DNA of 64,000 nucleotides, from NCBI GenBank assembly GCA_965223845.1, contig CBDCXR010000004.1:1-64000 (forward strand), in the 5' to 3' direction. The translations under genes and the position numbers were made by a program. The number at the start of each line of letters is the position of its first letter. Position 1 is the stretch's first letter. This DNA comes from Planctomycetota bacterium. GTDB taxonomy: Bacteria > Planctomycetota > UBA8108 > SXIK01. Under the pieces are notes generated by a model. That model was not told the DNA's origin. It saw only the letters and a list, made by a program, of their open reading frames with translations, and made no database searches. Below, one piece after another: positions 1,494-51,143 of this stretch.

Positions 1494-3791
1494 TCAGAAG
1501 CAGATCGAGTTGTTGCACGAGAGCGTCGTGCCGCCGTCGACGCCGCAGCCCGGGAAGGGCGACGCCGGAGCGCTTCCGCCTCCGAAGAGGTAGTTGAACA
1601 GGTAGATCGCGTCGGCGATCTCGATCCCGTCGCTCGAGTTGGCGTCGGCCGCGGCCTCGCACGCGGGGTCGGCTCCGCCGCCGAAGAGATTTCCGATAAT
1701 CGCACTCGGGTCGGAGATGTTGATTCGGCCGTCGTCGTTGACGTCGCCGCGCCGGAAGAAGGGCAGGTCCGTGCCGGCAGTCTGCAGCTTGTAGACGAGA
1801 CCCGAATCGATTCCCGCGAGGAACCCGAACTGCGCGGTGGAGGCGACTCCCCCGACGGACGACGTCCCCAGGGTCTCGCGGAGGTCGAACCGAAACTCCT
1901 CGGCGCTCTGCGCGAGGGTGCTCGTGTCGAAGACGACGCGCGCGTAAACGTCGAGGACGCCGGTCCGCGCGTCGGAGATCGGGAGATCGACGGTGAGGGA
2001 GCCCTCGCTCGCGGAGACGACCGAGATGCCGCCGGTGAGCGTCGCCTGGAGGTCGTCGAGGGCGAGCTGAGCGTCGCGAAACGCTTCGGGGATGGATCCG
2101 GTCCGATCGAACGGGTAGATCACGCCGTTCAGGAGATCCACCGTCCAGAACCAGCCGTTCACCTCGTCGTAGCTCAAATCGCCGAGCTGGCTGCGGAAGT
2201 GATTGAGGGGGATGTCGATGACGACGGGATCGCCCTGGATGGCGCCGTCGAAGGTCGTCGCGAGAAGCGAGTGGAGTCCGCCGTTTTGATTCAGCCAGTA
2301 GAGGCGCTCGTTTTGCGTCTCGTCCGGCGCGATCGAGACGCCCGTGATCGTGCCGCTCGGAAACGGGCTCGGCAGCGTCGCGCCCGGCTCGAGGTTGAGG
2401 TCGTAGAACTGCACGCCGCCCGAGTCGAGATCCGCGACGACGAGGTTCGCGCCGGAGATCGCCGCGGCGTACGGCCGCCCGGTCGCGCCGCTCGGGGCGA
2501 ATGGAGCGGTCGCGAGGATGCTTCCGGTCCCGAGATTGATGCGACAGGTGAGCGGGGACGTCGCGCCGCCGTTCGTGACGGTGAGCGTGTACTCGTACGA
2601 CCCCGCGGCGAGACCGGTATCGATCACCTCGCCCGTATCGTCGGCGAAGGTCGTCGTCAGCACGGTTTCGGCGGCGTCGCTTCCGAGCGCCGTCCGCTCG
2701 ACCGTGAGGGTCCCGTAGTCGAGGTTCTTCGTCCAGGCGAGCTTCACCGAGGTCGCGTCGTTCGCGGTGCAGGCGAGACTCGCCACCGTGCCGGCCTTCG
2801 CGCTGTCTGCGCTCACCTCGAGGATGCGCGGTTGTCCGCCATCGAGATCGATGTCGAGGAGGATTTCGCTTCCGTTCCCGGCGGAACAGGAGTCGGGCCA
2901 GTAGACGATGCCGGTGACGAATTGCGGTGATTCGCGATCGTCGTCGAGCGCGTAGAAGATGCCCGTCTCGTCTCCGACGCCGAAGTCTCCGTTCGCCGTA
3001 GCGAAGACGCGCACGACGCGCGTCGGTCGCCCGTCGGCAAGCGAGCCGGCTGTGATGTCGAAGTACTCGCCGGATTCGTCGGCGACGTAAGCGAGATCGT
3101 TTCCGTACGCACCGCCGCTGGCACCGCGCATCGGATTGAAAAAGTAGTTCGGGCGGTCGCCGTCGAGGACGAGCGCGCCGTCCGTCCCGATCTCGAAGTA
3201 GAGGTCGTTGACGATGTCGACGGCCCAGAGATTCCCCGTGCCCTCGTGGACGGTGATTCCGCCGAGCGTTCCCGTCACGATCGAGTCGTCACCCGAGTCG
3301 GTGCGCACGAGCTCGGCGAGCTGCGCCAAGTCGACCGTCCCGAGACGCACGGGCGCTTCGCCGAGCGTTCCGGTCTGCCAGATCTCGCCGTCGACGGCCC
3401 AGAGGAGAAGATCATTCAGGAAGACGAGCCCCGTGGTCGTGCGCGAGCCGCCCGGCGACGGAATCACGATGTCGCGACGAGCGATGGTTTCGATGACGGA
3501 CGTGTCGTACTCCCACACGTACGTGTTGCCGCTGAAGAAGTCCGCGACGTAGAGCTGATCCGGTGCGCCCTCGCGCCGCACGATGGTCCCCGCCGCCGGG
3601 AACGCGTCCGGGTAGGACGGATCGCCGAGCGGATTCGGGCCGGTGGAGTCGAGCACGCGGATGACGCACTGACCGAGGTCGAGATCCGACGCGCACGAGC
3701 ACTGCGCTCGGACGAGATCGGCGGTCGACGCCGTCAACAATGCGGCCAAGAGTCCGAAGCGAAAGCGCATCCACTGGCTGGGGGTCAACAT
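1494..3791 (-). CDS. Large secreted protein with beta-propeller-like repeats, an Fn3-like module and a C-terminal dockerin-like domain
   Basis: ORF 1494..3866; start placed at ATG 3791 after GGAG; signal peptide ending VRA-Q; tail FRRGDVNDDG...ADANSSDG...PFPGCG. Confidence 0.8.
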   Translation of the reverse strand: MLTPSQWMRFRFGLLAALLTASTADLVRAQCSCASDLDLGQCVIRVLDSTGPNPLGDPSYPDAFPAAGTIVRREGAPDQLYVADFFSGNTYVWEYDTSVIETIARRDIVIPSPGGSRTTTGLVFLNDLLLWAVDGEIWQTGTLGEAPVRLGTVDLAQLAELVRTDSGDDSIVTGTLGGITVHEGTGNLWAVDIVNDLYFEIGTDGALVLDGDRPNYFFNPMRGASGGAYGNDLAYVADESGEYFDITAGSLADGRPTRVVRVFATANGDFGVGDETGIFYALDDDRESPQFVTGIVYWPDSCSAGNGSEILLDIDLDGGQPRILEVSADSAKAGTVASLACTANDATSVKLAWTKNLDYGTLTVERTALGSDAAETVLTTTFADDTGEVIDTGLAAGSYEYTLTVTNGGATSPLTCRINLGTGSILATAPFAPSGATGRPYAAAISGANLVVADLDSGGVQFYDLNLEPGATLPSPFPSGTITGVSIAPDETQNERLYWLNQNGGLHSLLATTFDGAIQGDPVVIDIPLNHFRSQLGDLSYDEVNGWFWTVDLLNGVIYPFDRTGSIPEAFRDAQLALDDLQATLTGGISVVSASEGSLTVDLPISDARTGVLDVYARVVFDTSTLAQSAEEFRFDLRETLGTSSVGGVASTAQFGFLAGIDSGLVYKLQTAGTDLPFFRRGDVNDDGRINISDPSAIIGNLFGGGADPACEAAADANSSDGIEIADAIYLFNYLFGGGSAPASPFPGCGVDGGTTLSCNNSICF

Positions 3792-4412
3792 GAGACTCTC
3801 CACACGGAAGTCACGTGGGTTTGTTTGTTGGACAAAGGAGGATGCGATCGGCTGCGCTGGGAGCAACCGGTCGGTGACGGACCGTCCGGAAACGAGTGCT
3901 CTTTCCCATCGCAGCGCCGCGCGCTGCGGGGTATCGATTCACTCGGGACGGAGTCAGGCTGGGAAGATTTCGGAAGTCGGAGAAGGAGGCCGCGCGGATG
4001 GAGCAGTGCTCCCTCCGTACACGCGAGGAGGCGTCGAGGTCGAGGCTGCTGCCGAGCGGTCGGCGAGACTTCGAATCGGCGCGTATCGCTCACGATGACG
4101 GGGGGAGAGAATCCCCGAGGCCGATGGGCCGAGTATATCGGTGCACGGCTAGGAGGTCAATCGACCGCGGCTGTCGCAACTCGACTGGCGGAGCTGGTTT
4201 TCGGCGACGGTAGACGTTCGGCCGGCGACGTCGGCTCGGCGCGGTAGAACGCGGCGAGGAAGCGACGTAGGGACGGGCCGAACCCGACGCGCCCGCGCGT
4301 GAGTTCGGCGATTCTTCGCGTCGATCCTACGCGCCGGAAGACGGATCGAGCGGGACCGATGGTCGCCGGTCGTTCGGGGTCGCGCAGCGAAGAAGCGAGC
4401 GGCCGACGTCGG

Positions 4413-4742
4413 TCAGGCCGGGAGCGAGCGCATGGTTCGCGCGGCGACGGCGATGCGTGCGCGCGAGAGGGAGTCACCGACCGCCTGCTGCGTGATTCCC
4501 AGCTGGTCGGCGATCTGCTGCTGTTGCAGGTTCTCGCGGAAGTAGAGGTGAACGACCTGCTGCTGGCGTTCGGTGAGATCGTGGAAGTGGTCGAGCAGCG
4601 CGCGCGTCATGATCATTCCCTGATAGAGGCGCGGCAGATCCTCGTGGTCGACGCGCCCCGCTTCCATGCTCGGAAGCTTCCCTTCCACGTACGCGCAGAT
4701 CCTCGCGCAGGTACGCCGGAGTGGGCAGTTGTGGCAGGTCAT
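4413..4742 (-). CDS. Small regulator: N-terminal Cys4 motif plus sigma-70 region-4 HTH
   Basis: MTCHNCPLRRTCARIC then LTERQQQVVHLYFRENLQQQQIADQLGITQQAVGDSLSRA; GAGG upstream. Confidence 0.8.
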   Translation of the reverse strand: MTCHNCPLRRTCARICAYVEGKLPSMEAGRVDHEDLPRLYQGMIMTRALLDHFHDLTERQQQVVHLYFRENLQQQQIADQLGITQQAVGDSLSRARIAVAARTMRSLPA

Positions 4743-5040
4743 CGACCGAATCCTCTGGTGGTTGAGTTTGAGCCACAGGCGACGAACTCGACGCGGCGTG
4801 GAGCCGCCGTCTCCATCATTTTAGCGGCAAGCCCGCACGTCGAACTTTAGCGCCGTCTGGCGCTTGTTCTGGAAACGTATCATAGCGTGTTTGAGAGTGT
4901 CAAACCGCGTGGAAATGCCGTGCCAGACTTCGTCCGAGGCGGACCATTTGCGAAATCCGAAACTCCTCGACGCCTTGGCTCGGGAGGTCGATCTTGCGTC
5001 GCGCTCGTGGAGGAACGAAACTGGTTGGATTGAGGAGGGA

Positions 5041-5997
5041 ATGAGTGTGATTCAGATAGCTCCGAGGCTCGCCGCCGGCGCTCCAGACCGATTCCGGGGG
5101 GCGTACATGCTCGTTCTCGCCCTCGGGGCCGGAGCGTTCCTCGGGCCGGTCCCGCGCTTGAGCGCGGGTGAGATCGAGTTTTTTCCCGCCGCATTCCTCC
5201 CGCAGCAGATCACCGCCGAGCGCGGCGACACGGTGAAATTCATCTGGCGAGGCGGTGCACACACGGTGACGAGCGGGCTTCCCGACGGCGCGCCGGGATC
5301 CCCGCTGGAGCCGGGCGCGCTCTTCGACGTCGTTCTCGACGAAGCGAATCCGGAGTTCGAGCTCGTGATCCCACTCGAGCAGATCGGCGGGATCGCGTTC
5401 TTCGATCGAAACAACCCCGCGCAGATCGGTTTCATTTCGATCGATACCGGCGAGCGCACGCTCGTCGTTCAAGTCGTCGACAACGTGTTCATTCCGGAAG
5501 TGCTCCATGTTTTCGCCGGCGATACCGTTCTTTGGCGACACGATCCGAACGAAGGCTTCCACACCGTGACGAGCGGGAAGTCGTCGGACCCGGCCGACAA
5601 TCCGGGGGCGCTTTTCGACGAGGAGTCATCGGACGCGAAGCCCGAATTCGCATATCTCTTCGACGCTCCCGGTGACTACCCGTATTTCTGTCGGCCCCAC
5701 GAGCATCTCGACATGATCGGAGTGATCGTCGTTCAGCCGCGATTCATCCGAGGCGATGTGAACGGAGATGGCGCGGTCGACATCGCGGACCCGATTCGCA
5801 CGCTGAACCACCTCTTCGGCACTGCCGAAGGAGTGCCGTGCGACGACGCGTCGGATGCGAACGACGATGGCGCGGTCGACATCGGCGATCCGATCTACGC
5901 ACTCAATTTTTTGTTCGGGACCGGCGCCGAGTTTCCGCGCCCGTATCCGCTAGCGGGCGCGGACCGCACCGAAGATGAGCTTGTCTGCCGAGAGTAA
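5041..5997 (+). CDS. Secreted tandem cupredoxin (plastocyanin-like) protein with C-terminal dockerin
   Basis: GAGGAGG RBS; two GDTVxF/W...HTVTSG repeats; the second has type-1 Cu ligands H...YFCRPHEHLDM; FIRGDVNGDG tail. Confidence 0.88.
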   Translation: MSVIQIAPRLAAGAPDRFRGAYMLVLALGAGAFLGPVPRLSAGEIEFFPAAFLPQQITAERGDTVKFIWRGGAHTVTSGLPDGAPGSPLEPGALFDVVLDEANPEFELVIPLEQIGGIAFFDRNNPAQIGFISIDTGERTLVVQVVDNVFIPEVLHVFAGDTVLWRHDPNEGFHTVTSGKSSDPADNPGALFDEESSDAKPEFAYLFDAPGDYPYFCRPHEHLDMIGVIVVQPRFIRGDVNGDGAVDIADPIRTLNHLFGTAEGVPCDDASDANDDGAVDIGDPIYALNFLFGTGAEFPRPYPLAGADRTEDELVCRE

Positions 5998-6016
5998 GGA
6001 ACCGGTCGGAGGGGGA

Positions 6017-6856
6017 ATGATGGACGGAAGAATCGATTCAGTGTTCGAGCGCGTATTCGGCGCGCTTCCCGCGGTCGTGCTCGCATTCATCCCCTTCGCG
6101 CTCGACGCGAGTGAATCGTTTCGCTTCGAGATCCCAGAGGTCTCAGCGCAGCCCGGTGACGATGTCGAGCTCACCATCCGCGGCGATTACACGCGCTCGG
6201 CGCAAGGGTTTACGGTAGCCCTCACGTTCCCGCGTTCCGACCTCGAGATCCGATCGGTTTCGTTCGAAGACACGATCCTCGAAGCGATCGAGGCCGATTT
6301 CCTCGAATCGCGCGTCGAGTTCGACGGCGAGCGTGGAATTCTCGTGATCGCCGTTCTCGTCGATGCCGGCCCTCCGTTCGACGGTCAGTTGATCCCGAGC
6401 ATCGGGCAACCGCTCGACTTCGCGTACATCCGCGCACGTGTGTCTGAGGAAGCCGAGGAGGACATCGAGATCCGCCTCGAGGATGGGCTCCTCGCGCCGC
6501 CGATTTCGAACGTGTACGTCGTCGATCACGAGGCGATCCCCGTCGACGAGCTCGGCAGCACGCGAGTGCGACTCGCGGGTGTGGAGCGATTCCTGCGTGG
6601 GGACGCGAATGTCGACGGCATCCACGACATCTCGGATCCCCTTACACTCCTCAATTCGCTGTTTGGACACCGTCGACCGCTTCCCTGCGCGACCGCAGCC
6701 GACGCGAACGACGACGAGCAGATCAACATCGCGGATCCGATTTACCTGCTCGTTTTTTTGTTCGCCGACGGATCGCCGCCGCCCCCGCCGCAGACGACAC
6801 CGGGTCGCGATCCGACGCCGGGCTCACTCGTCTGTGCGCGAGCACTCTCCCAGTAG
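6017..6856 (+). CDS. Secreted cohesin-like + dockerin protein
   Basis: Signal peptide; IPEVSAQPGDDVELTI..AQGFTVALTF cohesin-like beta-sandwich; FLRGDANVDG tail. Confidence 0.75.
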   Translation: MMDGRIDSVFERVFGALPAVVLAFIPFALDASESFRFEIPEVSAQPGDDVELTIRGDYTRSAQGFTVALTFPRSDLEIRSVSFEDTILEAIEADFLESRVEFDGERGILVIAVLVDAGPPFDGQLIPSIGQPLDFAYIRARVSEEAEEDIEIRLEDGLLAPPISNVYVVDHEAIPVDELGSTRVRLAGVERFLRGDANVDGIHDISDPLTLLNSLFGHRRPLPCATAADANDDEQINIADPIYLLVFLFADGSPPPPPQTTPGRDPTPGSLVCARALSQ

Positions 6857-7190
6857 TCCAGCGCTTCGGCGGAGGCGAGGACCGTTCGCGTCGTGTTTGG
6901 CCATCGCGCGCCGGCGTTCCCTGGGCGCGACGACTCGCGTGGTATTGTAGAGCGAGTGGGGGTGTCCGCGCGCGTCGTGCGGTCGTGCCCCCGATGATCA
7001 CGAGGAGCCCGCGCGAGAAACGGAACCGGAAGGAAACCATCGTCGACGACTGCGTCATCCGCGATGGCTCCATCTCGGTCGCGAATCCTCGACGATTCGA
7101 CTCGCGTCTCCCGCGGCTCGTTTCGCAATGCCGTCCGAGCTGCCTTCAAATCGATCCCTTGCGCCGGGCCCAGGCCCGAGCGGTGCCGTC

Positions 7191-8336
7191 ATGCCAAGTT
7201 TTCGTTTTCGATCGTTCTCACTGTTTCTCGCCGTTCTCGCCGGGTTGGCGGTAGGTCTGCACGAGCCCGTCGCCGCCCAGGAATTCGCGATCGAGCTCGT
7301 GCCCGAGGCCGCGACGGTGAGTTCGTGCAGTGAGTCAACGTCGAGAATCGCCGCCCGCTTCGAGAATCCGGGTGGAGTGAGCATCGGCGGGTACCAGATC
7401 TTTCTCCGCTTCTCTGCCGAGCATTTTTCCGCGGTGGATTTCGAACCGGCGGACGTCGATGGCTTCGTTCGCTTCGCTAGTCCCGACGAGCTCGCGGATT
7501 GTGAGGTCGCCACCGCGGATCCGTGGAACGACGGCGCCGGTGAGGATGTGACCTCGGTCGTCGCGACGGTGATCGGCGAGGGAGTGTCGTCGCCGCTCGC
7601 GGCCGCGAGCGGCGAGCTCGGGAGCTTCGTATTCCGATCGCGCGGTCTCGCATCGGGCGCAGAAGGCGTCACGTTCCTGGGGAACGAAGACCCCTGCGCG
7701 TCGCACGTAACCCAGACGACGCGCGTGTTCGACGCGGCGGGGGACCTCGTCCCGTCGACGCTGACGCCGAGTGTCGCGGTTGTCGTCGAGAACGGCGGAC
7801 CGATGCTCGAGGGGCTCAGTTGTCGCGATCTCGGCGAGTCGATCGAGCTTCGCTGGATCCCGCCGGATGGCGTCCCGATTACCGGGTATCGCGTCTACCG
7901 AGACGGCGAACGGATCCGCGAGATTCCGATCGCGGGTCTGACATCGATCGAGGACGACGCGCCGCCACCGGGACGCGTGGAGTACTCGGTCGCACTTCTC
8001 CTCGCCGGCGGCGTCGAGGGCTGTCGGCGATCCTGTGTGCTCGAACGTTCGCGCGAGCGGTTTCGCCGCGGCGACGCCAACTCGGATGGCGCCGTGAACG
8101 TCGCCGACGCGATCGCGACGCTCGAGCATCTCTTCGGCAGCACGCCGATTCGGTGTCTCGATGCGGCCGACACCAACGACGACGGTCGGCTCAACGTGAC
8201 GGACCCCATCGCGCTTCTCGCGTTTCTCTTCGAGGAGGAGGCGACACCGCCCGCCTTTCCCTACCCGGACGAAGGTGTCGACCCAACCGAGGACAACCTC
8301 GGCTGTCCGCCCGAAGACGCCGCTCCTGCGGCCTGA
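7191..8336 (+). CDS. Secreted cohesin-like + Fn3-like + dockerin protein
   Basis: Signal peptide ending VAA-Q; IGGYQIFLRF; IELRWIPP..ITGYRVYRDG..YSVA (Fn3); FRRGDANSDG tail. Confidence 0.75.
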   Translation: MPSFRFRSFSLFLAVLAGLAVGLHEPVAAQEFAIELVPEAATVSSCSESTSRIAARFENPGGVSIGGYQIFLRFSAEHFSAVDFEPADVDGFVRFASPDELADCEVATADPWNDGAGEDVTSVVATVIGEGVSSPLAAASGELGSFVFRSRGLASGAEGVTFLGNEDPCASHVTQTTRVFDAAGDLVPSTLTPSVAVVVENGGPMLEGLSCRDLGESIELRWIPPDGVPITGYRVYRDGERIREIPIAGLTSIEDDAPPPGRVEYSVALLLAGGVEGCRRSCVLERSRERFRRGDANSDGAVNVADAIATLEHLFGSTPIRCLDAADTNDDGRLNVTDPIALLAFLFEEEATPPAFPYPDEGVDPTEDNLGCPPEDAAPAA

Positions 8337-8555: not shown

Positions 8556-8583
8556 TTGACAGTGCGCACGAAGTGGGTAGACT
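8556..8583 (+). promoter_or_regulatory. Sigma-70 promoter of the dcw operon
   Basis: TTGACA (8556-8561), 16 nt spacer, TAGACT (8578-8583), upstream of mraZ. Confidence 0.7.
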
Positions 8584-8592
8584 GACGCCCCA

Positions 8593-8617
8593 AGTGGAGG
8601 GGAGTGGGGAGAAGTGG
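8593..8617 (+). promoter_or_regulatory. MraZ-binding direct repeats
   Basis: AGTGG at 8593, 8603 and 8613 (exact 10-bp period), matching the GTGG-N6-GTGG MraZ box; further AGTGG at 8536 and 8572. Confidence 0.8.
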
Positions 8618-8723
8618 TTTGATCGTCATCGTCGGTGGCGAGACCGCCTCGTTCTCCCCCGCTCGTATTTCGGCGATTCGTCTCGCCGGACTTCAGAGAG
8701 TTTTCGGAAGCCCCCTCCGCGAC

Positions 8724-9146
8724 ATGTTCCTTGGCGAGTTCGAGCACACGACCGACCCGAAGCACCGGGTCGTCTTACCTTCGCCGCTGCGCCGCGAGGT
8801 GGAGCTCCAGCGGGGCTTCGTCCTGGTGCCGGAGGAGAAGAACGAGTGCCTCGAGTTGCATCCGTTCGAGGCGTGGGAGAGGCGAGTTGCCGACCTCGAG
8901 AAGGACCACGACGTCCACCGGGACCGGACGGCGAGGGCGTACTTCCGTCGCTACATCGGACGCGCACAGCGCGGCCAGTGCGACAACCAAGGTCGCTTCC
9001 TTCTACCGGAGGTGCTGCGCCGGGCCGTCGGCATCGATCGCGATGTTCGCTTCATCGGCATGGTGCACTTCATCGAGATCTGGTCCGCGGAACGGTGGCG
9101 CGACGGGGAGTCGGTTCGCGACGCCGAGGGGGCGGAGGGTGATTGA
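8724..9146 (+). CDS. mraZ: Transcriptional regulator MraZ
   Basis: MFLGEFEHTTDPKHRVVLPS; CDNQGRFLLPEVLR; IEIWS; first gene of the dcw cluster. Confidence 0.93.
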   Translation: MFLGEFEHTTDPKHRVVLPSPLRREVELQRGFVLVPEEKNECLELHPFEAWERRVADLEKDHDVHRDRTARAYFRRYIGRAQRGQCDNQGRFLLPEVLRRAVGIDRDVRFIGMVHFIEIWSAERWRDGESVRDAEGAEGD

Positions 9147-9597: not shown

Positions 9598-10515
9598 GTG
9601 AACGAGCCGGATTCGCCCTCGCCGTCCGCGCCGCACGTGCCTGTGATGGCGACGCCGCTGCTCGACGTGCTTCGACCGGCGCGCGGCGAGATCTTCGTCG
9701 ACGCGACCGTGGGAGCCGGGGGGCATGCGGCGCTCCTCCTCGAGCGACTTGGCTCGGAGGGTCTCCTCATCGGGATCGATCGCGATCCGGATGCGCTCGC
9801 GCTCGCCTCCGCTTCGCTCGAAGCGACGGGGAATCCGTTCCGTCTCGTTCGCGGACGCTTTTCGGAGCTCCGTCGTCATCTCCGCGACCTCGGTCCCCCC
9901 GTTGAAAGTGGAGTCGACGGTGTCCTACTCGATCTCGGAGTCTCGTCGATGCAGCTCGATCGTCCCGAGCGCGGGTTCAGTTTCCTCCGCGACGGTCCGC
10001 TCGACATGCGCATGGACGCCGAGACGGGCGAACGCGCCGCCGAGCTGCTCCGCACCATCGAGCTCGCTGATCTCACGCGGCTTCTGCGCGAACTGGGCGA
10101 AGAACCGCGCGCCGCGCGCGTTGCTCGCGCGATCGTCGCCGCGCGACAGGCCGGCGACCTCGAGTCGACGGGCGACTTGCGCGACGCCGTCGAGTCGGTC
10201 GTCTCGCGACAACCGGGCAAGGTGCATCCCGCAACGAGAACGTTTCAGGCAATTCGGATCGCCGTCAACCGCGAGCTCGACGAGCTCCGTGCCGCGCTCG
10301 CGGATCTCGATCGGGTGGTTCGACCGGGTGGACGCGTCGCCGTCCTCTCCTACCATTCGCTCGAGGATCGCATCGTCAAACGCTGGCTCGCCGGAGCCGA
10401 GAGCGACGGGTTCTTCATCGCGCAGCGTCCGCTCATCCGTCGTCCGGACGACGAGGAAATCTCGCGCAATCCTCGCGCCCGGAGCGCTCGTCTCCGCGCG
10501 GCGGTGCGAGCGTGA
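9598..10515 (+). CDS. rsmH: 16S rRNA m4C1402 methyltransferase RsmH
   Basis: HVPVM, DATVGAGGH, DLGVSSMQLD..RGFSF, HPATRTFQAIRIAVN, NPRARSARLR. Confidence 0.97.
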   Translation: MNEPDSPSPSAPHVPVMATPLLDVLRPARGEIFVDATVGAGGHAALLLERLGSEGLLIGIDRDPDALALASASLEATGNPFRLVRGRFSELRRHLRDLGPPVESGVDGVLLDLGVSSMQLDRPERGFSFLRDGPLDMRMDAETGERAAELLRTIELADLTRLLRELGEEPRAARVARAIVAARQAGDLESTGDLRDAVESVVSRQPGKVHPATRTFQAIRIAVNRELDELRAALADLDRVVRPGGRVAVLSYHSLEDRIVKRWLAGAESDGFFIAQRPLIRRPDDEEISRNPRARSARLRAAVRA

Positions 10516-10979: not shown

Positions 10980-12851
10980 ATGGGACGGAGACGACGGCGA
11001 GCGGACGGGCCGAAACAAGATCCGTCCGCGGTCGAGCGAGTACGGCGATCCCTTCGAATTCGACTCGTCACGGCGGCGGTGTGCGCATCGATCGGGTTTG
11101 CGGTCCTCGCCGGACGGCTCTACTCGATTCAGGTCGGAGACCACGAGCGGTTTCGCGCCTCCGCCGAGAACATGCACACGCGCCGCGAGCCCGTCCTCGC
11201 GCACCGCGGAGATATTCTGACGCGCGACGGAGTGATCCTCGCGCGGAACGAGCTCGTTTTCGACATCGCGATCGATCCCTCGCGCATCGCGCCGGAGCGA
11301 ATCGGTCCCGTCGTCGACGCGATCTGCGAGACACTCGGAACGAGCGCCGAGTACCGGCGCGAGCGCGCGGTCCTCGCCCGACAGTACGCCGAGCGAGGAA
11401 GACAGTTTCTCTCGCTCGGTCGATCGGTCGCGCGAGACGTGGCCCGGCGCGTTCGTCCCGCCGTGATCGAGGCGGTGAAGAGCGCGAACCCGCTCGCGGT
11501 GATCGTCGAGCGCCGGAGCGAGCGGAGGTACCCGCGCGGAGCGTTTGCGGCGTCCGTCGTCGGGGTGAGCGACCGCGAGGAGCGCGGAGTCGAGGGGCTC
11601 GAGCGGGCGTTCGACGCCTACCTCGCGCCGAAGGACGGGACGCGCGAGGTCCAAGTGGGGGCTCACCCGGCGAGTGCGCGCGCGTTTCGCCCCGGAAATG
11701 GCTACGTGGCAGCCGTCCCCGGTTACGACGTCGTGACGACGATCGACAGTCGCCTCCAGTCCATCGTCGAGACGCAGCTCGAGTGGGGGGTGAAGCGCAT
11801 GCGCGCGCAGGGCGGCGTCTGCATCGTCCTCGACTGTCGACACGGCGACATTCTCGCGCTCGCGAACTACCCGACCTACGATCCGAACCAATACGAAAAG
11901 TACCCCGAGCGCGAACGCGCCAAGCGGCGGCGGAACCGCGCCGTCGAGGATGCTTACGAGCCGGGTTCGGTCGTGAAGGGATTCATCCTCGCGAAGGTCC
12001 TCGAGCACGGCGTCGCCGCGCGCCACGAGCGCATTCGGTCGATTCTCCCCGCCGGCGTGCGCTGGGACGGAGGGAAGCGCGCCGTGTTCGGCCGCCGCCC
12101 GGTTACCGACGTGCACGCGCATCCCGGCATGACGGTCGAGCAGGCGCTCTACCAGTCGTCGAACATCGGCATGTCGGCGCTCGGCATTCGCCTCGGTCGC
12201 GCTCGGATGGTGGAGATGCTCGACGCCTTCGGCTTCGGTCGACCGACCGGCGTGCTCCTCCCCGCGGAGGTGAACGGTCGCTACCAACCGCCCGAGGAGT
12301 GGAAGCCGTTCCAGTCGATCGTCTCGCTCTCGTTCGGATACGCGGTGATGGTCTCGCCCGTTCAGCTCGCGTCGGCATTCGCGGCGCTCGTTAACGGCGG
12401 GAAGCTTCTTCGGCCGCGCATCGTCGATCGCGTCGAGCGCGATGGCATCGTCCACCGGTTTCCCCGCGGGGAAACCGTCGGGCGGCCGATCTCCGAGGAC
12501 GTTTCGCGTCAAATGCGCGAGATCCTCGCGAAGGTCATCGAGGACGACGAAGGGACCGCGAAGTGGATCCGCGTCGAGGGGTTTCGCTTCGGTGGGAAGA
12601 CCGGCACGGCGGACATCGCGACCAATGGTCGGTACACGAAGACGAACTATCTTGCGTCCTTCGAGGCGTTCGCGCCGGTCGACGATCCAGAGGTCGTCGT
12701 CCTCTGCATGATCGAGAAGCCGCGGGATTCGATCTACGGCGGGATGGTGAGCGGTCCGGTGGTCGTCCAGATCCTGCGGCACATGTACCGTGTCGACGAG
12801 GTGTGTCGACTCGAAAAAATGGGTGCGGCGGGGCCGTGGATCGGTTGGTGA
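10980..12851 (+). CDS. ftsI: Class B penicillin-binding protein (FtsI/PBP3)
   Basis: RGDILTRDG, RRYPRG, GLE, YEPGSVVK (SxxK), SSN, KTGT. Confidence 0.93.
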   Translation: MGRRRRRADGPKQDPSAVERVRRSLRIRLVTAAVCASIGFAVLAGRLYSIQVGDHERFRASAENMHTRREPVLAHRGDILTRDGVILARNELVFDIAIDPSRIAPERIGPVVDAICETLGTSAEYRRERAVLARQYAERGRQFLSLGRSVARDVARRVRPAVIEAVKSANPLAVIVERRSERRYPRGAFAASVVGVSDREERGVEGLERAFDAYLAPKDGTREVQVGAHPASARAFRPGNGYVAAVPGYDVVTTIDSRLQSIVETQLEWGVKRMRAQGGVCIVLDCRHGDILALANYPTYDPNQYEKYPERERAKRRRNRAVEDAYEPGSVVKGFILAKVLEHGVAARHERIRSILPAGVRWDGGKRAVFGRRPVTDVHAHPGMTVEQALYQSSNIGMSALGIRLGRARMVEMLDAFGFGRPTGVLLPAEVNGRYQPPEEWKPFQSIVSLSFGYAVMVSPVQLASAFAALVNGGKLLRPRIVDRVERDGIVHRFPRGETVGRPISEDVSRQMREILAKVIEDDEGTAKWIRVEGFRFGGKTGTADIATNGRYTKTNYLASFEAFAPVDDPEVVVLCMIEKPRDSIYGGMVSGPVVVQILRHMYRVDEVCRLEKMGAAGPWIGW

Positions 12852-12970: not shown

Positions 12971-14479
12971 GTGGAGAGAATCAGCATGCGTCTCAAGGAG
13001 CTGGGAGACGGCTGCCTGCGCGTGCCGTCGGACCTCCAGGACGTGGAGGTGACGGGGCTGACGTGTGATTCGCGCTGCGTCAAGCCGGGCTGGGCGTTCG
13101 TCGCCGTCGACGGGGAGTGCGTCGACGGACATCGATTCGTGCGTCGCGCGGTTTCCGCTGGAGCTAGCATCGTCGTCGGGGAACGGCCGCGGCAGCGGCG
13201 CGCGAACGGAGTGGGCGATGCGGTCGATCGGACGATCCGCTCGCTGCGCGTGCCGTATCTTCGCGTCGCCGACTCGCGCGCGGCGCTGGGTTACCTGAGC
13301 TCGAACTTCTACGGGCGAGCCCACGAGAAAGTGCGCGTCGTCGGCGTGACGGGCACGAAAGGAAAGACGACGACGGCGTGGCTGCTCGACGCGATCTTTC
13401 GCGCGTCCGGGGTCGTGTCGGGGCTTCTCGGCACGGTCCACAATCGAATCGGGGGCAGTGTCCGATCGGCACGGAATACGACCCCGTCGAGCCTCGAGCT
13501 GCATCGCTACCTCTACGAGCTCGTCCGCTCGGGCGGAACTCACGCCGTCATGGAGGTCTCGTCGCACGGCATCGCACAGCGACGGACCGCGGGACTCGAG
13601 TTCGACGCTGCCGTGTTTACGAACATCGCGCCCGAGCACCTCGATTACCACGGGACGTTCGAAGACTATCTCGCGACGAAGGTGAAGCTCTTCGAGACTC
13701 TCCGCCCGGACGCCTACGCGATCCTGCCCCGCGATGAGGACGCATCGGCGCGGATTCAGCGTGCGACCCCCGCCCGCGTCGTTTGGTTCAGCGATCGTCC
13801 CGACGACGGCGTGGAGGACATCCGGAGCGGTATCGGCGGCACCAGCTTTCTCTGGAAGGGACGCCGCGTCGAAACTCCGCTCGTCGGAGCGCACAACCTC
13901 CTCAACCTTCTCGGAGCGATGACTGCGGCCGAGTGTATCGGGATCGCGCCCGACACCATCGCCCAAGCGGCGCGAGCCGCTGCCGCGCCTCCGGGGCGAC
14001 TCGAGGAGATCCCCTCGGGGCGCGGCTTCCGCGTCTTCGTCGATTACGCGCACACCGACGGTTCCCTCGAGGCCGTCCTCCGCGCGCTCCGACCGCTCAC
14101 GCCCGGCCGGATCATCACGGTCTTCGGTTGCGGCGGCGACCGCGATCGCGGCAAGCGCCCGCGGATGGGGCAAGTCGCCGAGAAAGGCTCGGACCACCTC
14201 GTCGTCACCTCGGACAACCCGCGGTCGGAGGATCCCGAAGCGATCCTCGACGACATTCGCGCCGGCCTCGAGCGGCCCGACGAGACGGTGTTCGAACCGG
14301 ATCGCCGCGCCGCGATCGCGCTCGGCATCCGCATGGCGCGTCCGCACGACGCCGTTCTCCTCGCTGGCAAGGGGCACGAAACCTACCAGGAGATTCAGGG
14401 CGAGCGCACTCACTTCGATGACCGCGAGGTGGCGCGGGAGTTTCTCGCGGAGCTGAGTGTGGGGATCGAAACGGTATGA
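12971..14479 (+). CDS. murE: UDP-MurNAc-tripeptide synthetase MurE (meso-DAP type)
   Basis: GVTGTKGKTTT, MEVSSHG, EHLDYH, VDYAHT, DNPR, GKGHETYQ. Confidence 0.96.
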   Translation: MERISMRLKELGDGCLRVPSDLQDVEVTGLTCDSRCVKPGWAFVAVDGECVDGHRFVRRAVSAGASIVVGERPRQRRANGVGDAVDRTIRSLRVPYLRVADSRAALGYLSSNFYGRAHEKVRVVGVTGTKGKTTTAWLLDAIFRASGVVSGLLGTVHNRIGGSVRSARNTTPSSLELHRYLYELVRSGGTHAVMEVSSHGIAQRRTAGLEFDAAVFTNIAPEHLDYHGTFEDYLATKVKLFETLRPDAYAILPRDEDASARIQRATPARVVWFSDRPDDGVEDIRSGIGGTSFLWKGRRVETPLVGAHNLLNLLGAMTAAECIGIAPDTIAQAARAAAAPPGRLEEIPSGRGFRVFVDYAHTDGSLEAVLRALRPLTPGRIITVFGCGGDRDRGKRPRMGQVAEKGSDHLVVTSDNPRSEDPEAILDDIRAGLERPDETVFEPDRRAAIALGIRMARPHDAVLLAGKGHETYQEIQGERTHFDDREVAREFLAELSVGIETV

Positions 14480-16107
14480 AGCCACTCGGCCTGCGCGCCC
14501 TGCTTCCCATCGTCGGCGGCCGGTGGACCGGCTCGGATCCGATTCCCGAAGGCCTCGTCTCCGGGTTCTCCACCGACACTCGCACGCTCTCCGGGCGCCC
14601 ACTCTTCTTCGCGCTCGAAGGCGAGCAACGCGACGGGCACGAGTTCGTCCGCGCGGCGCACGCGCGGGGAGCGATCGCATCGGTCGTCGCCGCGCATCGC
14701 GTGCGGGATTTGCCGGCGCAGGCCGGTCCGTACGTCGTCGTCGACGATCCACTCAACGCCCTGGAGCGATGGGCGAAGTGGAATCGCGATCAGATCGATC
14801 CGATCGTGGTCGGAGTGACGGGAAGCGTAGGAAAAACGAGTGTAAAGGAGTTCCTCGGAACGCTGCTGAGCGATCGGTTCAGCGTCGCGATCGCTCCGAA
14901 GAGCTACAACAACCGGCTCGGGGTCGCGACGACGCTTCTCTCGGTCGCGCCGGAAACGGAGATTCTCGTCGCGGAGCTCGGTACGAGCGGACCGGGGGAG
15001 CTCGCGTATCTCTCACGGTTGGTCCGCCCCGACCACCTCGTCATCACCGAGATCGCGCCCGCTCATCTCGACGGACTGAGAGATCTCGACGGAGTCGTTC
15101 GGGCGAAGGCGGAGATCTTCGACGGCCAAAATCCCGGAGGCTGGACGTTTGTTCGCCGCGGGATCTACGGCTTCGACACGTTCCGCGCGCGCACGCGCGG
15201 GCCGATGTGCCTCTTCGGTCGTCACGACGACCTCGAATGGGACGGAGAGCGCGCGCACGGCGCGGAGTCGGCCGGGGTCGTCGTCGATGCGAGCTACACT
15301 GTGAGCGACTGCGTCCGCGTCGGGCTCGGCGACCCGCGCTCGATCAACGGTGCGCGCGCCTACGGGTATCATTTTTCCGTCGACGATCGAGAGAACTTTC
15401 TCCTCCCCGTCCCCGGGGCGCACAACGTGACGAACGCACTCGCCGCGATGTGCGTCGCACACAAGCTCGGAATGGACTGGTCGGAGCTGCGTGCGGCGCT
15501 CTGCCTCTGTCGTCTCCCGCCCCTGCGCTTTCAGGTCGTCGAAGTCCGCGGCGTCCTTTTCCTCAACGACTCCTACAACGCCAATCCCCGCAGCATGCGG
15601 GCCGCGATCGAGGAGTGGCGCGATCTCGCCGCAGCGATCCCGAGTCCGAATCGCCTGAAGAGTCGGACGGATCTCGCCGGGTCGTCCCGCCGCCGATCGA
15701 GATCGAGGCAGCCCGGCCCGGTCGCGGTGCTCGGCGACATGTGCGAACTCGGGGCGCGCTCGCGAGTGCTTCACGAGGAGATCGGGGAGCTCCTCATCGA
15801 AAGCGGCGCGCGCTTGATCGTGACCGTGGGTACGGACAGCCGCTGGATCGCGGAGTCGTACCGGCAGCTCGGCGGCAGAGGGATCACGCGACACTTCGCC
15901 GACGCGCGGGGCGCGGCGGACTTCCTCAAGGAGAACGTTCGCGCCGGCGATCACGTCCTCATCAAGGGCTCGCGCGCGATCGGACTCGAGCGAGTGTTCG
16001 ACGCGACGATGCGGTGGGTGAAGCACCGCGGCGCGGACGCGAAGGGCGTCCGTCGCGCGGCTTCCGCCGCCGCGCCCGCGGGCGAGTCCGGGGAGAGCAG
16101 GCCATGA
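14476..16107 (+). CDS. murF: UDP-MurNAc-pentapeptide synthetase MurF
   Basis: GVTGSVGKTSVKE, SYNNRLG, NDSYNANP, LGDMCELG, IKGSR; ATGA overlap with murE. Confidence 0.95.
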   Translation: MKPLGLRALLPIVGGRWTGSDPIPEGLVSGFSTDTRTLSGRPLFFALEGEQRDGHEFVRAAHARGAIASVVAAHRVRDLPAQAGPYVVVDDPLNALERWAKWNRDQIDPIVVGVTGSVGKTSVKEFLGTLLSDRFSVAIAPKSYNNRLGVATTLLSVAPETEILVAELGTSGPGELAYLSRLVRPDHLVITEIAPAHLDGLRDLDGVVRAKAEIFDGQNPGGWTFVRRGIYGFDTFRARTRGPMCLFGRHDDLEWDGERAHGAESAGVVVDASYTVSDCVRVGLGDPRSINGARAYGYHFSVDDRENFLLPVPGAHNVTNALAAMCVAHKLGMDWSELRAALCLCRLPPLRFQVVEVRGVLFLNDSYNANPRSMRAAIEEWRDLAAAIPSPNRLKSRTDLAGSSRRRSRSRQPGPVAVLGDMCELGARSRVLHEEIGELLIESGARLIVTVGTDSRWIAESYRQLGGRGITRHFADARGAADFLKENVRAGDHVLIKGSRAIGLERVFDATMRWVKHRGADAKGVRRAASAAAPAGESGESRP

Positions 16108-17207
16108 TTGCCATCCTCCTCGAGCGCTGGTGGGAGGGTACGCTCGAACCGCTCGTTCGCGCCGCGGGAGCACTCGTCTGCGCTCTCGCGATCGCGCTCG
16201 CGACCGGTCCGCTCCTCATCCGTCGTCTGCGCGAAGGTCGCGTTCACGACCGAGTGCAAAAAGGGGATTCGGCGCGACTCGACGAGCTCAGTGCGCACAA
16301 AGAGAAGACCCCGACGCTCGGGGGGCTCTTCTTCTTCGGCGCGGTCGTCGCATCGATCGTTCTTTGGTGTCGACTCGATACGCTCGCGCCGTGGCTCGCC
16401 GTCGGCGTGATCGTCGCGCTCGGAGGTCTCGGTCTCGTCGACGATCTCGCGAAGCTCCGTTCGGGGCGAAAGGGCATTTCCGCGCGGGCGAAGCTCGCCG
16501 GTCAAATCGCGGTTTCGCTCACCGCGGCGTCGATTCTCTACGCCTTCGGGCCAGCGGTGCGCTTCGGCGCGGAGGGCGCGGCGGCGGATGTCGGCGGGAC
16601 AGTCCTCTTCGTACCGGTCGTCCACCACGTGATCGTGCTCGGATGGGTCTGGATCCTCCTCGCGACGTTTGTCACGACCGGCGCCTCGAACGCGGTCAAT
16701 CTGACCGACGGGCTCGATGGACTCGCGGTCGGCTGCAGCCTCATCGTCGCCGGAGTGCTCGCTCTCGCCGCCTTCGCGGGTGGTGAGGCAGCGACCGCCG
16801 GGCGACTCGCCGTGCCGCACGTCGCGGGTGCGGGAGAACTCGGCGTCGTGCTCGCGGCGGTCATCGGCGGTGGCTTCGGCTTCCTCTGGTTCAACTGCCA
16901 TCCGGCCCGCGTGTTCATGGGCGACACCGGGGCGCTTCCGCTCGGCGGGCTCCTCGGGTTCTCGGCCGTGTTTCTCCGGCAGGAGGTCCTTCTCGCCGTC
17001 GCCGGGGGAGTGCTCGTCGTCGAGGCGCTCTCCGTCATTCTGCAGGTCGCCTCGTTCAAGCTCACGGGTCGGCGCATCTTCAAAATCGCGCCGCTCCATC
17101 ACCACTTTCAGTTCGGTGGGCTGCGCGAGACGCAGATCACCGTCCGGTTCTGGCTCACCGGCGCAGTTCTCGCCGTCGGTTCGCTCGTGATGTTGAGGCT
17201 GGGGTGA
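16104..17207 (+). CDS. mraY: Phospho-N-acetylmuramoyl-pentapeptide transferase MraY
   Basis: TPTLGG, DD, NAVNLTDGLDGL, FMGDTG, APLHHHF; C-terminal part of ORF 14457..17207. Confidence 0.96.
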   Translation: MIAILLERWWEGTLEPLVRAAGALVCALAIALATGPLLIRRLREGRVHDRVQKGDSARLDELSAHKEKTPTLGGLFFFGAVVASIVLWCRLDTLAPWLAVGVIVALGGLGLVDDLAKLRSGRKGISARAKLAGQIAVSLTAASILYAFGPAVRFGAEGAAADVGGTVLFVPVVHHVIVLGWVWILLATFVTTGASNAVNLTDGLDGLAVGCSLIVAGVLALAAFAGGEAATAGRLAVPHVAGAGELGVVLAAVIGGGFGFLWFNCHPARVFMGDTGALPLGGLLGFSAVFLRQEVLLAVAGGVLVVEALSVILQVASFKLTGRRIFKIAPLHHHFQFGGLRETQITVRFWLTGAVLAVGSLVMLRLG

Positions 17208-17252: not shown

Positions 17253-18437
17253 ATGGCTGACGCGAGTCTGAGCGAGAGAGTTGCGAGCGCACCGTCGCGC
17301 TGGTTCGCGCGGGCGTTCGGCAGCGAGATGTCGCGCACGCTCGTCATCACCTCGGTGTCGCTGCTCGTCTGCGTCGGTACGGTGATGGTGTTCAGCGCGG
17401 CGGCGTTCCACCGCGCGGCCGCCGGCGATCCGTTCTACTTCTTGCGGAAGCAGCTCGCGTGGGTCGCGATCGCGAGCCTCGTCGGCATCTTCTTCTATCA
17501 GATCGACTACCGGCTCCTCCGGCGCGTCTACTGGCCGGCGCTCGTCGCCGCGACACTGCTCCTCGCGCTCGTACTCCTCCCGCAGGTCGGCACGCTCGTC
17601 AATCAGTCGCGACGGTGGATTCGACTCGGTGGAGGACTTCAGTTTCAGCCATCGGAGCTAGCGAAACTCGTCGTCGTCCTCTTCGTCGCCGGCTACCTCG
17701 CGAACGATCCCCGACGCCCGCGGCAGTTCTTTCGCGGCTTCTGCGCGGTCAGCTTCTGCATCCTCCCCGCGTTTATCTTCATTCTTCTCGAGCCCGATTT
17801 CGGCACTGCGGTCTTCGTCCTCGGACTCGCGATGCTTCTTCTCCTCCTCGGTGGCGTTCCGATTCTCCACATGCTGACGAGCGTCGTCGTGTTTCTCCCG
17901 TTCATCGCGCTCGCGGCGTATTCTAGGTGGGAGCAGGTGACGCGTCGGGTGTTCGCGTTTCTCGAGCCGGAGCAGGAGTACCAGATGCTTCACTCGCTCA
18001 CCGCGCTCGGAACCGGGGGCTGGACCGGCGTCGGACTCGGCGAGAGCGGGCAGCGACTTCAGTTCCTACCGGAAGCACACACGGATTTCATCCTGGCGAT
18101 CATCGGCGAAGAGACGGGGCTCGTCGGCTGCACGGCGATCCTTCTTCTCTTCGTCTGCTTCATCTGGGGCGGCGTCGGTATCGTTTGGCGCGCGCGCGAT
18201 TACTTCGGCTTTCTTCTCGGGGCGGGAATCATCTTCGGGATCGGCGTTCAGGCGTTCCTGAACGTCGCCGTCGTGACGGCCAGCGCGCCGACGAAGGGGA
18301 TCGCACTACCGTTCGTGACCTTCGGGGGCTCGGGTCTCGTTATCGCGATGGCCCAAATCGGTCTCCTTCTCTCGATCGAGCGAGTCTGGCGGGAAGAGGC
18401 ACGATCGGACGGCTCGGCTGGAGCGGAGGCGGGATGA
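17253..18437 (+). CDS. ftsW: SEDS peptidoglycan glycosyltransferase FtsW
   Basis: RRWI..QPSELAK, EPDFGT, LPEAHTDFI..IIGEE, PTKGIALPFVTFGGS. Confidence 0.94.
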   Translation: MADASLSERVASAPSRWFARAFGSEMSRTLVITSVSLLVCVGTVMVFSAAAFHRAAAGDPFYFLRKQLAWVAIASLVGIFFYQIDYRLLRRVYWPALVAATLLLALVLLPQVGTLVNQSRRWIRLGGGLQFQPSELAKLVVVLFVAGYLANDPRRPRQFFRGFCAVSFCILPAFIFILLEPDFGTAVFVLGLAMLLLLLGGVPILHMLTSVVVFLPFIALAAYSRWEQVTRRVFAFLEPEQEYQMLHSLTALGTGGWTGVGLGESGQRLQFLPEAHTDFILAIIGEETGLVGCTAILLLFVCFIWGGVGIVWRARDYFGFLLGAGIIFGIGVQAFLNVAVVTASAPTKGIALPFVTFGGSGLVIAMAQIGLLLSIERVWREEARSDGSAGAEAG

Positions 18438-41342: not shown

Positions 41343-41531
41343 CGGGACGAACGCCGGCGGGGGTGGGAGAGTTCCGGTGCAGGTTCTGCCCGCGGCGTCC
41401 GTCTCTCTCATGGGGAAGGCGGTCGTTCGACGGCTCGCCGCCGGCGGCCGTCCCGCGGGCCCGCCGTGCGACCCGAACGCTCGGGATTCGCCCGGCCGGG
41501 CGCGCGGATTCTTCTGCGATTCGCCGCCGCC

Positions 41532-50814: not shown

Positions 50815-51143
50815 GAATTCCCGTTCGTGTCGGGCTCGTCTCACCCGCGGACGGCCGCGAGGGGGAACCGTCTCAATTCTGGACACGGTCGGCGCCGGGC
50901 GCCTTCGCGCCAGAGCGCGAACATCCGGTCCACCCCCATCTTACGACGGATCCTCTGCCCTGCGCGTTGCGGTCGAGGAGGTCGCCGTCGTTTGACAGCG
51001 TCCGAGGAGCCACGTATTCTTCTTCGGCTCCGCGGGCGCGGAGGCGCGTAAATATTTATTCGGAAGGTGGTTGTGACGATCCCGAGCGTCGAATCCGGGG
51101 CCGCTCAACTGAAGAGAAACCGGCGACCGTGGAGGTCCCTCGC

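Follow-up and report, generated by a model that had tools for sequence, protein, structure and literature searches.

What is a protein of 109 residues, with four cysteines at its extreme N-terminus and a sigma-factor-like fold behind them, doing between genes for large dockerin-bearing proteins? The question is raised by a gene at 4413..4742 on the minus strand of a 64,000-nucleotide stretch from a Planctomycetota bacterium (contig CBDCXR010000004.1, positions 1 to 64,000), which as a whole is referred to here as the window. The original prediction, made from the letters of the window, held that the protein is a possibly new one-component sensor of oxygen, redox state or metal that controls the locus. 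The analysis described here places it in an undescribed family of small proteins that combine a four-cysteine (Cys4) head with a sigma-region-4 helix-turn-helix (HTH) domain. The favoured reading, to which a probability of about 40% is attached, is that the protein regulates transcription on its own, binding a metal and working at the promoter or promoters that flank its own gene, and that it probably acts on the adjacent dockerin gene or genes.

The coding sequence at 4413..4742 (P0001), which was taken from the open reading frame (ORF) listing with its translation and includes the stop codon, is a real gene under strong constraint. It starts with an ATG, the first start codon past the preceding in-frame stop, and its product is a cytoplasmic protein in two parts. 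The first is a head module of residues 1-32 (4647..4742, minus strand), delimited by motif conservation and by an AlphaFold2 (AF2) model. It holds all four cysteines of the protein, C3, C6, C12 and C16, in the spacing C-x2-C-x5-C-x3-C (codons at 4695-4736, minus strand), within the layout C3-x2-C6-P-x-R9-x2-C12-x3-C16 followed by E20, L23-P24 and G29-R30. The second part, residues 33-106 (4425..4646, minus strand), is a four-helix HTH domain of the sigma-region-4/YlxM type, assigned with Pfam, the AF2 model, a Protein Data Bank (PDB) sequence profile and Foldseek; its recognition helix lies at about residues 85-96, in the ITQQAVGDSLSRA region. Among the six-frame ORFs of at least 50 residues in the 64-kb window the cysteine string occurs a single time. 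The protein length, the cysteine positions, the region-4 HTH and the missing sigma region 2 given in the original prediction are all borne out by the translation and by Pfam.

The family is defined most clearly by its orthologues. A genome scan gave 123 confirmed stretches, the best 80 of which were kept, and 46 of these (L001-L046), from 46 different assemblies, are full-length orthologues with 48-79% identity. Nearly all are labelled as uncultured Planctomycetota, with three records bearing another phylum label or none; L016 (labelled Proteobacteria) and L042 (labelled Bacillota) nest within Planctomycetota clades on the tree, and mis-binning or mislabelling is likely. The cysteine motif is found in 47 of 47 orthologous ORFs (the 46 loci and the window) and, being kept in every orthologue, is not a chance feature. 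The other stretches, L047-L080, were rejected as orthologues and proved to be different region-4 proteins; they are left out of all counts because the motif is present in 0 of 34.

More distant relatives behave in the same way. A word-indexed protein search returned 62 homologues at E<=0.001 from 65 candidates, with 58-75% identity and mostly of about 109 residues. The exact motif is present in 52 of the 62, and the other ten are N-terminally shorter entries, eight of which start at the internal Met26. The few that carry a name are called 'sigma-70 family RNA polymerase sigma factor' or 'sigma factor-like helix-turn-helix DNA-binding protein' and come from metagenome-assembled genomes (MAGs) of Planctomycetota. 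An exhaustive HMMER search gave 258 representatives at E<=1e-3, including 41 at E<=1e-10, and motif counts were taken from the 150 matches listed. Of these, 72 start at query residues 1-3, at identities of ~30-60%, and 71 of the 72 have the exact spacing, the exception (P0074) being without the fourth cysteine only; the remaining listed matches reflect region-4-only similarity to different proteins. Expressed over 50%-identity cluster representatives, the exact motif is present in at least 75 of the 149 newly listed. Conservation of the cysteines, which the original prediction had set as a test of itself, thus holds both in the orthologues and in the distant relatives among those listed.

Which other residues matter can be read from an alignment of 101 rows, termed A2. 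Its rows were chosen for the motif, so that its cysteines are invariant by construction. In its 44 most distant rows the best-kept residues apart from cysteine are R9 (93%), E20 (80%), L23 (84%) and P24 (95%), all of which lie in the head, and the polar positions of the recognition helix vary. As far as an alignment can indicate, a conserved head with a variable recognition helix is what would be left by one cofactor or partner module shared among proteins of differing DNA specificity.

The head itself matches nothing described in Pfam, NCBIfam or the PDB. Searched alone, residues 1-33 have no PDB match with phmmer and no Pfam match, both at E<=10, and residues 1-34 gave no usable match in the ESM Atlas. 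Comparison by tblastn with 50,697 phage and 72,556 plasmid records produced partial region-4 matches only, none of them with the head, and Foldseek against BFVD gave 0 matches at E<=0.001; a mobile-element origin was rejected on the lack of any match with the head in these phage, plasmid and BFVD searches. A literature search found, with the terms used, no paper describing a Cys4 head on a sigma-4 domain. The head is therefore an undescribed module, with no family model, solved structure or paper found for the architecture, and the protein belongs to an undescribed family of small Cys4-head sigma-4 HTH proteins. What had been called 'possibly new' has on this point held up against the PDB and Pfam.

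Judged by its cysteine pattern, the head most likely wraps a single metal centre. About half of the likelihood is given to Zn(II) in a structural or regulatory role, a little under a third to an iron-sulfur (Fe-S) cluster, and the last fifth or so to something else, such as a thiol/disulfide switch or Cu(I); sequence cannot separate a structural zinc from an Fe-S cluster here. If the zinc is purely structural, the head would be a short treble-clef-like knuckle serving to stabilise a small, constitutive HTH regulator or to make it dimerise, and nothing would be sensed. This explanation falls a little short of an even chance. Four cysteines are packed into 14 residues, two of them at a helix start in the AF2 model, a layout that fits short zinc knuckles, and small regulators made of a zinc finger and an HTH are common; strict invariance of the ligands is also what a structural site would be expected to show. 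However, the conserved R9, E20, L23, P24 and G29 go beyond the needs of a bare structural knuckle and suggest a surface for interactions or a metal site with a tuned environment, and no Pfam zinc-finger model matches the head, even at E<=10.

The other explanation of the head is that it carries a cluster, [4Fe-4S] or [2Fe-2S], that is labile to O2, NO or redox conditions and whose loss or gain would switch DNA or RNA polymerase (RNAP) binding in a one-component Fe-S sensor. This is considered unlikely, though the spacing speaks in its favour. The cluster cysteines of E. coli FNR are given as 20, 23, 29 and 122 in the relevant passage of PMC6659574, so that the equation of C-x2-C-x5-C with the N-terminal ligand spacing of FNR in the original prediction holds. 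Its identification of the full string with the SPASM auxiliary-cluster motif is also correct, in so far as the excerpt of PMC5715301 describes CX2CX5CX3C as part of an Fe-S-binding motif of seven cysteines; the literature occurrences of the string that were listed are mostly radical S-adenosylmethionine (SAM)/SPASM proteins, with one methanogen supercomplex. The cysteines are invariant, a proline is conserved after the second of them, and the order of the two parts, with the head at the very N-terminus and the HTH behind it, resembles FNR in its logic. Against this, the head is without a sequence or fold match to any Fe-S protein. A CCHC zinc knuckle has the same 14-residue span as the four cysteines. 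In the SPASM/ferredoxin string, moreover, the last cysteine ligates a different cluster from the first three, and so the precedent does not extend to four close cysteines on one cluster. Most of the source MAGs bear isolate names in the style of marine surveys (a statement about names alone), and Fe-S assembly or redox genes are not conserved nearby.

The identity of the second domain is much firmer. In Pfam the 109-residue protein matches Sigma70_r4 with an E-value of 2.2e-9 (37.1 bits against a gathering cut-off of 24.1) over residues 55-91, Sigma70_r4_2 with 33.5 bits (cut-off 25.7) and UPF0122/YlxM, PF04297, with 31.4 bits (cut-off 22.7), the last over profile positions 8-58 of 101. The NCBIfam model TIGR02937 (sigma70-ECF) scores 39 bits, under its cut-off of 42.9, at model positions 109-159 of 165, and the YlxM equivalog NF045758 reaches 36.7 bits where 80 are required. 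HTH_Crp_2 is sub-threshold at 16.3 bits against 27, and there is no Pfam match to cNMP_binding, Radical_SAM, SPASM or Whib. Sigma70_r2 has no match at E<=1, and it is also absent from 21 of 21 longer family members checked, three of which have two region-4 domains. Lacking region 2, the protein cannot alone be a sigma factor; it stands alone, with its undescribed head.

The AF2 model, built from alignment A2, has a mean predicted local distance difference test score (pLDDT) of 92.4 and a predicted template-modelling score of 0.70, with the residue blocks of the head (1-30) at 88-92. The head is predicted to form two short turns, one carrying C3 and C6 and one preceding C12, then a short helix (17-22) and a loop, and the HTH domain consists of helices 33-51, 58-69, 74-81 and 85-106. 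With this model Foldseek found nothing in the PDB at E<=0.001, its best partial fits being sigma region 4 domains and YlxM, and the best local fit was YlxM 1s7o, with a root-mean-square deviation of 1.0 A over 62 columns. The PDB sequence profile search retrieved SigF (5.7e-8), FliA (1.1e-7), UPF0122 (7.5e-7 and 1.1e-6) and also sigma-4 domains of extracytoplasmic function (ECF) sigma factors; the matches all begin at about profile position 29 and never cover the head. A homodimer prediction with two copies of A2 scored 0.02 against a mark of 0.42, and the program gave no call.

A search for fused or longer forms yielded two candidates, both of which were set aside. P0212 has a domain-less N-terminal extension with an internal methionine directly before the cysteine motif and was read as an over-extended start, and P0217, a peptidase fragment joined to the C-terminal part on a 904-nt contig, was read as an artefact. 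A separate observation is that the weaker HMMER matches include proteins of 230-1,100 residues (P0093, P0095, P0101, P0106 and P0119 among them) with 4-7 tandem sigma-region-4-like HTH repeats; the top PDB profile match, 8vd6 ('CAP REPEAT'), is a similar HTH repeat array.

The case for a local target comes from the gene neighbourhood, for which the ORFs of the window region and of L001-L046 were clustered and compared with the window genes. Directly downstream of the small gene and co-oriented with it lies the gene for a secreted protein of 790 residues by its longest ORF (1494..3866, minus strand; Dockerin_1 in Pfam, and synteny). On the other side, and divergent, is a cupredoxin-dockerin gene (5041..5997, plus strand, longest ORF from 4864; Copper-bind at 5.6e-8 and Dockerin_1 in Pfam), whose likely start, read from the sequence, is the ATG at 5041 with GGAGG in front. 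The ORF list and Pfam agree with the gene order that had been proposed, with the small gene divergent from the cupredoxin-dockerin genes and upstream of the large dockerin gene. In 28 of the 46 loci a full-length homologue of the 790-residue protein, with 27-46% identity, is encoded directly downstream on the same strand, at a spacing of 96-585 bp by longest-ORF starts; three of these 28 are cut by contig ends. A second set of nine loci, the PilM group, is described below. Of the remaining nine loci, five end within ~850 nt past the small gene (L016, L031, L037, L039 and L046) and L022 has a partial homologue of the large protein 1.6 kb away. The other three have different neighbours: nuoL/M/N and an inositol monophosphatase in L023, an 830-residue FG-GAP protein with trigger factor and ClpX in L044, and ACPS with an RluD-like synthase in L045.

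A maximum-likelihood tree built from the small protein accounts for the state 'large gene downstream' by one change; it places the PilM group as one nested clade and L023, L044, L037, L045 and L046 as the sister clade. The linkage to the large dockerin gene is hence ancient and retained, as one historical association, in a clade of uncultured and mostly marine Planctomycetota, and the neighbourhood check suggested with the original prediction has come out positive within that clade. The copper link is weak, since full-length cupredoxin homologues occur in 4 of 46 loci only (L001, L003, L008 and L014). Further out, the flanking genes vary from clade to clade: in one they include the dcw cluster (mraZ, rsmH, ftsI) and an amidase, and in a second an FG-GAP/dockerin giant of 2,090-2,410 residues upstream and an esterase, an M3 peptidase and a cyclophilin downstream. 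In this second clade (L017-L043, for example L019:1089-7673) the giant is secreted, with FG-GAP repeats and a dockerin-like C-terminus, and an intrinsic terminator stands before the small gene. In the deep-branching relative L044 the small gene comes after the gene for the FG-GAP repeat protein, at 4902-7391 of that locus, and before those for trigger factor and ClpX; an association with FG-GAP surface proteins may therefore predate the one with the two-propeller dockerin protein.

The DNA around the small gene offers candidate sites of action. In the spacer between the small and the large gene, a consensus match identifies a near-consensus sigma-70-type promoter, TTGACC-17-TATACT, at 4132..4160 (minus strand); in 3700-5200 one such site was found against 0.0 expected in shuffles. 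Every one of the 29 loci with the large gene has a spacer site of the TTGACA-16-TAGAAT or TTGACT-17-TATACT type, with at least 9 of 12 positions, as do L022, L031 and L039. When at least 10 of 12 positions are demanded, the 405,072 nt of these loci contain 28 matches on that strand, 27 of which are the spacer site, and the whole window has four sigma-70-type sites on both strands. The large gene is thus predicted, from these matches, to have its own conserved and unusually strong-looking promoter. Between it and the likely start of the large gene (the ATG at 3791, which gives 765 residues) is a leader of ~334 nt (3792-4125, minus strand) whose predicted fold is somewhat more stable than that of shuffles (z-score -2.45); it is not visibly conserved across clades, and neither the window nor 9 related loci have an Rfam match.

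The small gene has a predicted promoter of its own, of the extended -10 type by consensus match, at 4874..4903 (minus strand): a -35 TTGACA (4903..4898), an 18-nt spacer ending in TGa and a -10 TACGTT (4879..4874). The arrangement TTGACA-17/18-TAnnnT with TGn occurs upstream of the small gene in the window, L003, L008 and L014 and in L002, L004-L007 and L010-L012 of the PilM group, and a similar architecture is seen in L015, L018 and L022. The second clade has (A/G)TG(C/T)CG-17-TATGCT after the intrinsic terminator of the giant gene.

From these elements a mechanism can be proposed. The regulator would act at one or more promoters flanking its own gene, where its sigma-4-like domain would sit on or beside the -35 box; with conservation of the nearby DNA confined to the promoter core, action at this box is the simplest model. 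The role of the Cys4-metal head would be to keep the protein in its active conformation or to switch that conformation. While the gene, the invariant motif, the fold class, the absence of sigma region 2, the synteny and the promoter-like sites are shown, this scheme infers that the protein binds metal and DNA, which target it has and whether it senses anything.

Several observations weigh against a local regulator. The search for a shared operator by k-mer counts in 47 upstream and 29 downstream regions returned promoter hexamers and lineage-specific blocks only, and a MAFFT alignment of 11 upstream regions likewise showed nothing across clades beyond promoter elements. A repeat, CTCGACGC, with three copies around the small gene, was rejected as being at chance level, with 32 matches against 27 expected in the window. 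The recognition helix, TQQAVGD, differs from the primary-sigma residues that read TTGACA. The nine loci of the PilM group (L002, L004-L007 and L009-L012) have no large gene downstream and carry a convergent PilM-containing cluster instead, with a homologue of the 402-residue dockerin protein divergently upstream in 8 of 9 (the contig of L009 starts 392 nt before the gene). The spacer promoter is absent downstream of the small gene in all nine of these and in L023 and L045. Deep-branching members sit amid housekeeping genes (nuoLMN, trigger factor/ClpX, ACPS/RluD-like). The synteny comes from one clade by vertical descent, so that the 28 loci are not independent events. Finally, the small protein is 60-79% identical where the large protein of the same loci is 33-46% identical, and MraZ in L001, L003, L008 and L014 is 34-60% identical against the same 60-79%; conservation above that of the neighbours hints that the partner is a piece of conserved machinery and not a local operator. 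Of the proposal that the protein controls the locus, then, the conserved linkage to dockerin genes stands, whereas control as such is weakened by the missing operator, by the PilM group without the large gene and by the housekeeping contexts. These same points, with the RNA-binding properties of YlxM considered below, keep two further explanations alive, an RNAP-directed sigma-4 mimic and a YlxM-like helper.

In the first of these the protein would act on RNAP genome-wide, either as a sigma-4 mimic that docks on the beta-flap and competes with or appropriates region 4 of the primary sigma, or as one half of a split sigma factor, contributing region 4 while region 2 is encoded elsewhere. Such a role would suit a protein with the sequence and fold of sigma region 4 that is, along its entire length, unusually well conserved beside its neighbours. 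It would also suit the lack of a local operator in the searches above, the housekeeping contexts of the deep-branching members and the usual presence of the gene in a single copy (46 full-length loci in 46 assemblies). It is nevertheless judged quite unlikely. A gene for a partner with sigma region 2 only is not conserved next to the small gene, and retention beside the large dockerin gene over deep divergence would go unexplained. The window has two sigma genes, at 41343-42128 (plus strand) and 50215-50940 (minus strand); both are complete and ECF-type, with Sigma70_r2 and r4_2 each, lie far away and are otherwise unrelated to the small gene.

The second is that the protein is a YlxM-like accessory of the signal recognition particle (SRP) or of co-translational targeting, which would bind Ffh or SRP RNA and aid the export of very large dockerin proteins. 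UPF0122/YlxM does exceed its Pfam cut-off and 1s7o is the best local fit, and the neighbours are large, with a predicted signal-type helix in the 790-residue protein and the 2,090-2,410-residue giants upstream in the second clade. YlxM, in the passage of PMC8546722 that concerns it, is reported to bind Ffh and SRP RNA (scRNA), not DNA. The same source, however, describes YlxM as confined to Gram-positive bacteria. The NCBIfam equivalog score is less than half of its cut-off and the Pfam match is partial, YlxM has no Cys head, and ffh is not adjacent in the window, where the neighbours are dockerin genes; SRP54 is absent among the annotated conserved neighbour clusters, which do not take in every ORF. 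Taken together this makes a YlxM-like role improbable, and a metal-binding regulator at the flanking promoters remains the favoured reading.

The proteins that such a regulator would serve are themselves of some interest. The AF2 model of the large protein (pLDDT 80.9) predicts a signal-type helix, a beta-propeller, an Ig-like domain, a second beta-propeller and C-terminal dockerin helices. Its top Foldseek matches are tandem beta-propeller proteins, at low template-modelling scores of 0.17-0.25, and one homologue has a weak NHL repeat match; the large partner is accordingly predicted to be a secreted dockerin protein with two beta-propellers. Beyond the cupredoxin-dockerin gene are two more genes on the plus strand. 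One, at 5975..6856, encodes a 293-residue protein with no Pfam match at E<=1, although BLASTP aligns its C-terminal 80-100 residues with the C-termini of neighbouring proteins, where their dockerins lie, and the other, at 7128..8336, encodes a 402-residue protein with Dockerin_1 in Pfam. The N-terminal halves of these two proteins are without a Pfam match and by eye resemble cohesin-type beta-sandwich modules; if that resemblance holds, the locus would encode cohesin-like as well as dockerin parts.

A study of freshwater Planctomycetes (PMC6461901) proposes, in the part that bears on this, cohesin/dockerin 'planctosome' assemblies with an anchor protein of 2,210 residues. By analogy, the dockerin loci described here look like the same kind of system. 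The second-clade giants (2,090-2,410 residues) recall in size and domain logic the 2,210-residue anchor that the same source gives for freshwater Phycisphaerae. Further along the window, one of the four sites with at least 10 of 12 positions lies at 8556-8603 (plus strand), just before mraZ (8604-9146) at the head of a dcw cluster that includes rsmH (9598-10515), ftsI (10980-12851), a mraY-like gene within 14457-17204 and murG (17927-19639).

The significance of the small protein depends on the role of the head. The family is broad, and all its members are environmental proteins that have no annotation or a generic name. If the head is a switch, it would represent a new minimal sensor architecture and would give a first handle on the control of dockerin-bearing surface proteins in uncultured marine Planctomycetota. 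A more far-reaching form of this idea is that the head is a new minimal [4Fe-4S]/[2Fe-2S] module, that the family comprises widespread one-component sensors of redox state, O2 or NO (or iron) that use a free sigma region 4 on -35 boxes or on the RNAP beta-flap, and that they gate dockerin-bearing surface assemblies in marine Planctomycetota; in this joint form the proposal is rather doubtful. If the head is structural zinc only, what is left is nonetheless a new family that has been defined and, with it, a regulator and target that can be tested as a pair and whose promoter is mapped.

Among known systems the closest in overall form is YlxM/UPF0122 (PF04297; 1s7o, 1xsv), which is likewise a small stand-alone protein made of a sigma-region-4-like HTH. 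It lacks a Cys head, with only 8-14 residues before the matched part in the PDB chains, and the C-terminal half of YlxM (profile positions 59-101) is unmatched in the 109-residue protein. The genomic context of YlxM is ffh, in the SRP operon. Region 4 of the sigma-70 family (SigF, FliA/sigma-28 and ECF factors) is the same domain by sequence and fold. Sigma-70 factors differ in that the 109-residue protein is without region 2, which provides core binding and -10 recognition, and has the Cys4 head as an N-terminal addition.

A short cysteine cluster directly beside a sigma-4 domain has a precedent in the ECF238 proteins OrbS (C-x2-C-x3-C-x5-C, Fe), CorE (Cu) and CorE2 (Cd/Zn), for which the pertinent sections of PMC9023288 and PMC7826278 describe Cys-rich metal-responsive tails beside sigma region 4.2. 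In those accounts the cluster makes activity metal-dependent, and the cysteine spacing of OrbS is the mirror image of that in the head. Unlike the protein described here, which has an N-terminal cluster and no region 2, they are complete sigma factors with region 2 and a C-terminal tail; the spacing and flanking residues differ also, and no homology to the head was detected.

FNR, as portrayed in the source cited above, shares with the protein the N-terminal C-x2-C-x5-C (here C3, C6 and C12, a match of spacing only), an HTH further along the chain and a one-component logic. It has in addition a beta-barrel of the cyclic nucleotide monophosphate (cNMP) type, a dimerisation helix and the distant C122, none of which is present in the 109-residue protein, a chain too short to house them. 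The SPASM string is identical, C-x2-C-x5-C-x3-C, but belongs, in the excerpted description, to a motif of seven cysteines and two clusters in a radical SAM enzyme, whereas here there are four cysteines and no radical SAM core.

The WhiB-like (Wbl) proteins of actinobacteria are small Fe-S proteins with C-xn-C-x2-C-x5-C that bind region 4 of another protein. Here, in contrast, the cysteine module is fused to the region-4-like domain, and no Whib Pfam match is seen. Coupling a metal or redox-sensitive cysteine site to a DNA- or polymerase-binding domain in a small regulator is a main way for bacteria to sense oxygen, iron, copper and oxidants. Where a sigma-4 domain is the basis, the examples known so far (CorE, CorE2 and OrbS) are complete sigma factors, whereas the domain here is a free one of the sigma-4/YlxM type. 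The components and the logic, a Cys-metal site beside an HTH, are thus already familiar, and it is the combination of a Cys4 head with sigma region 4 that is new.

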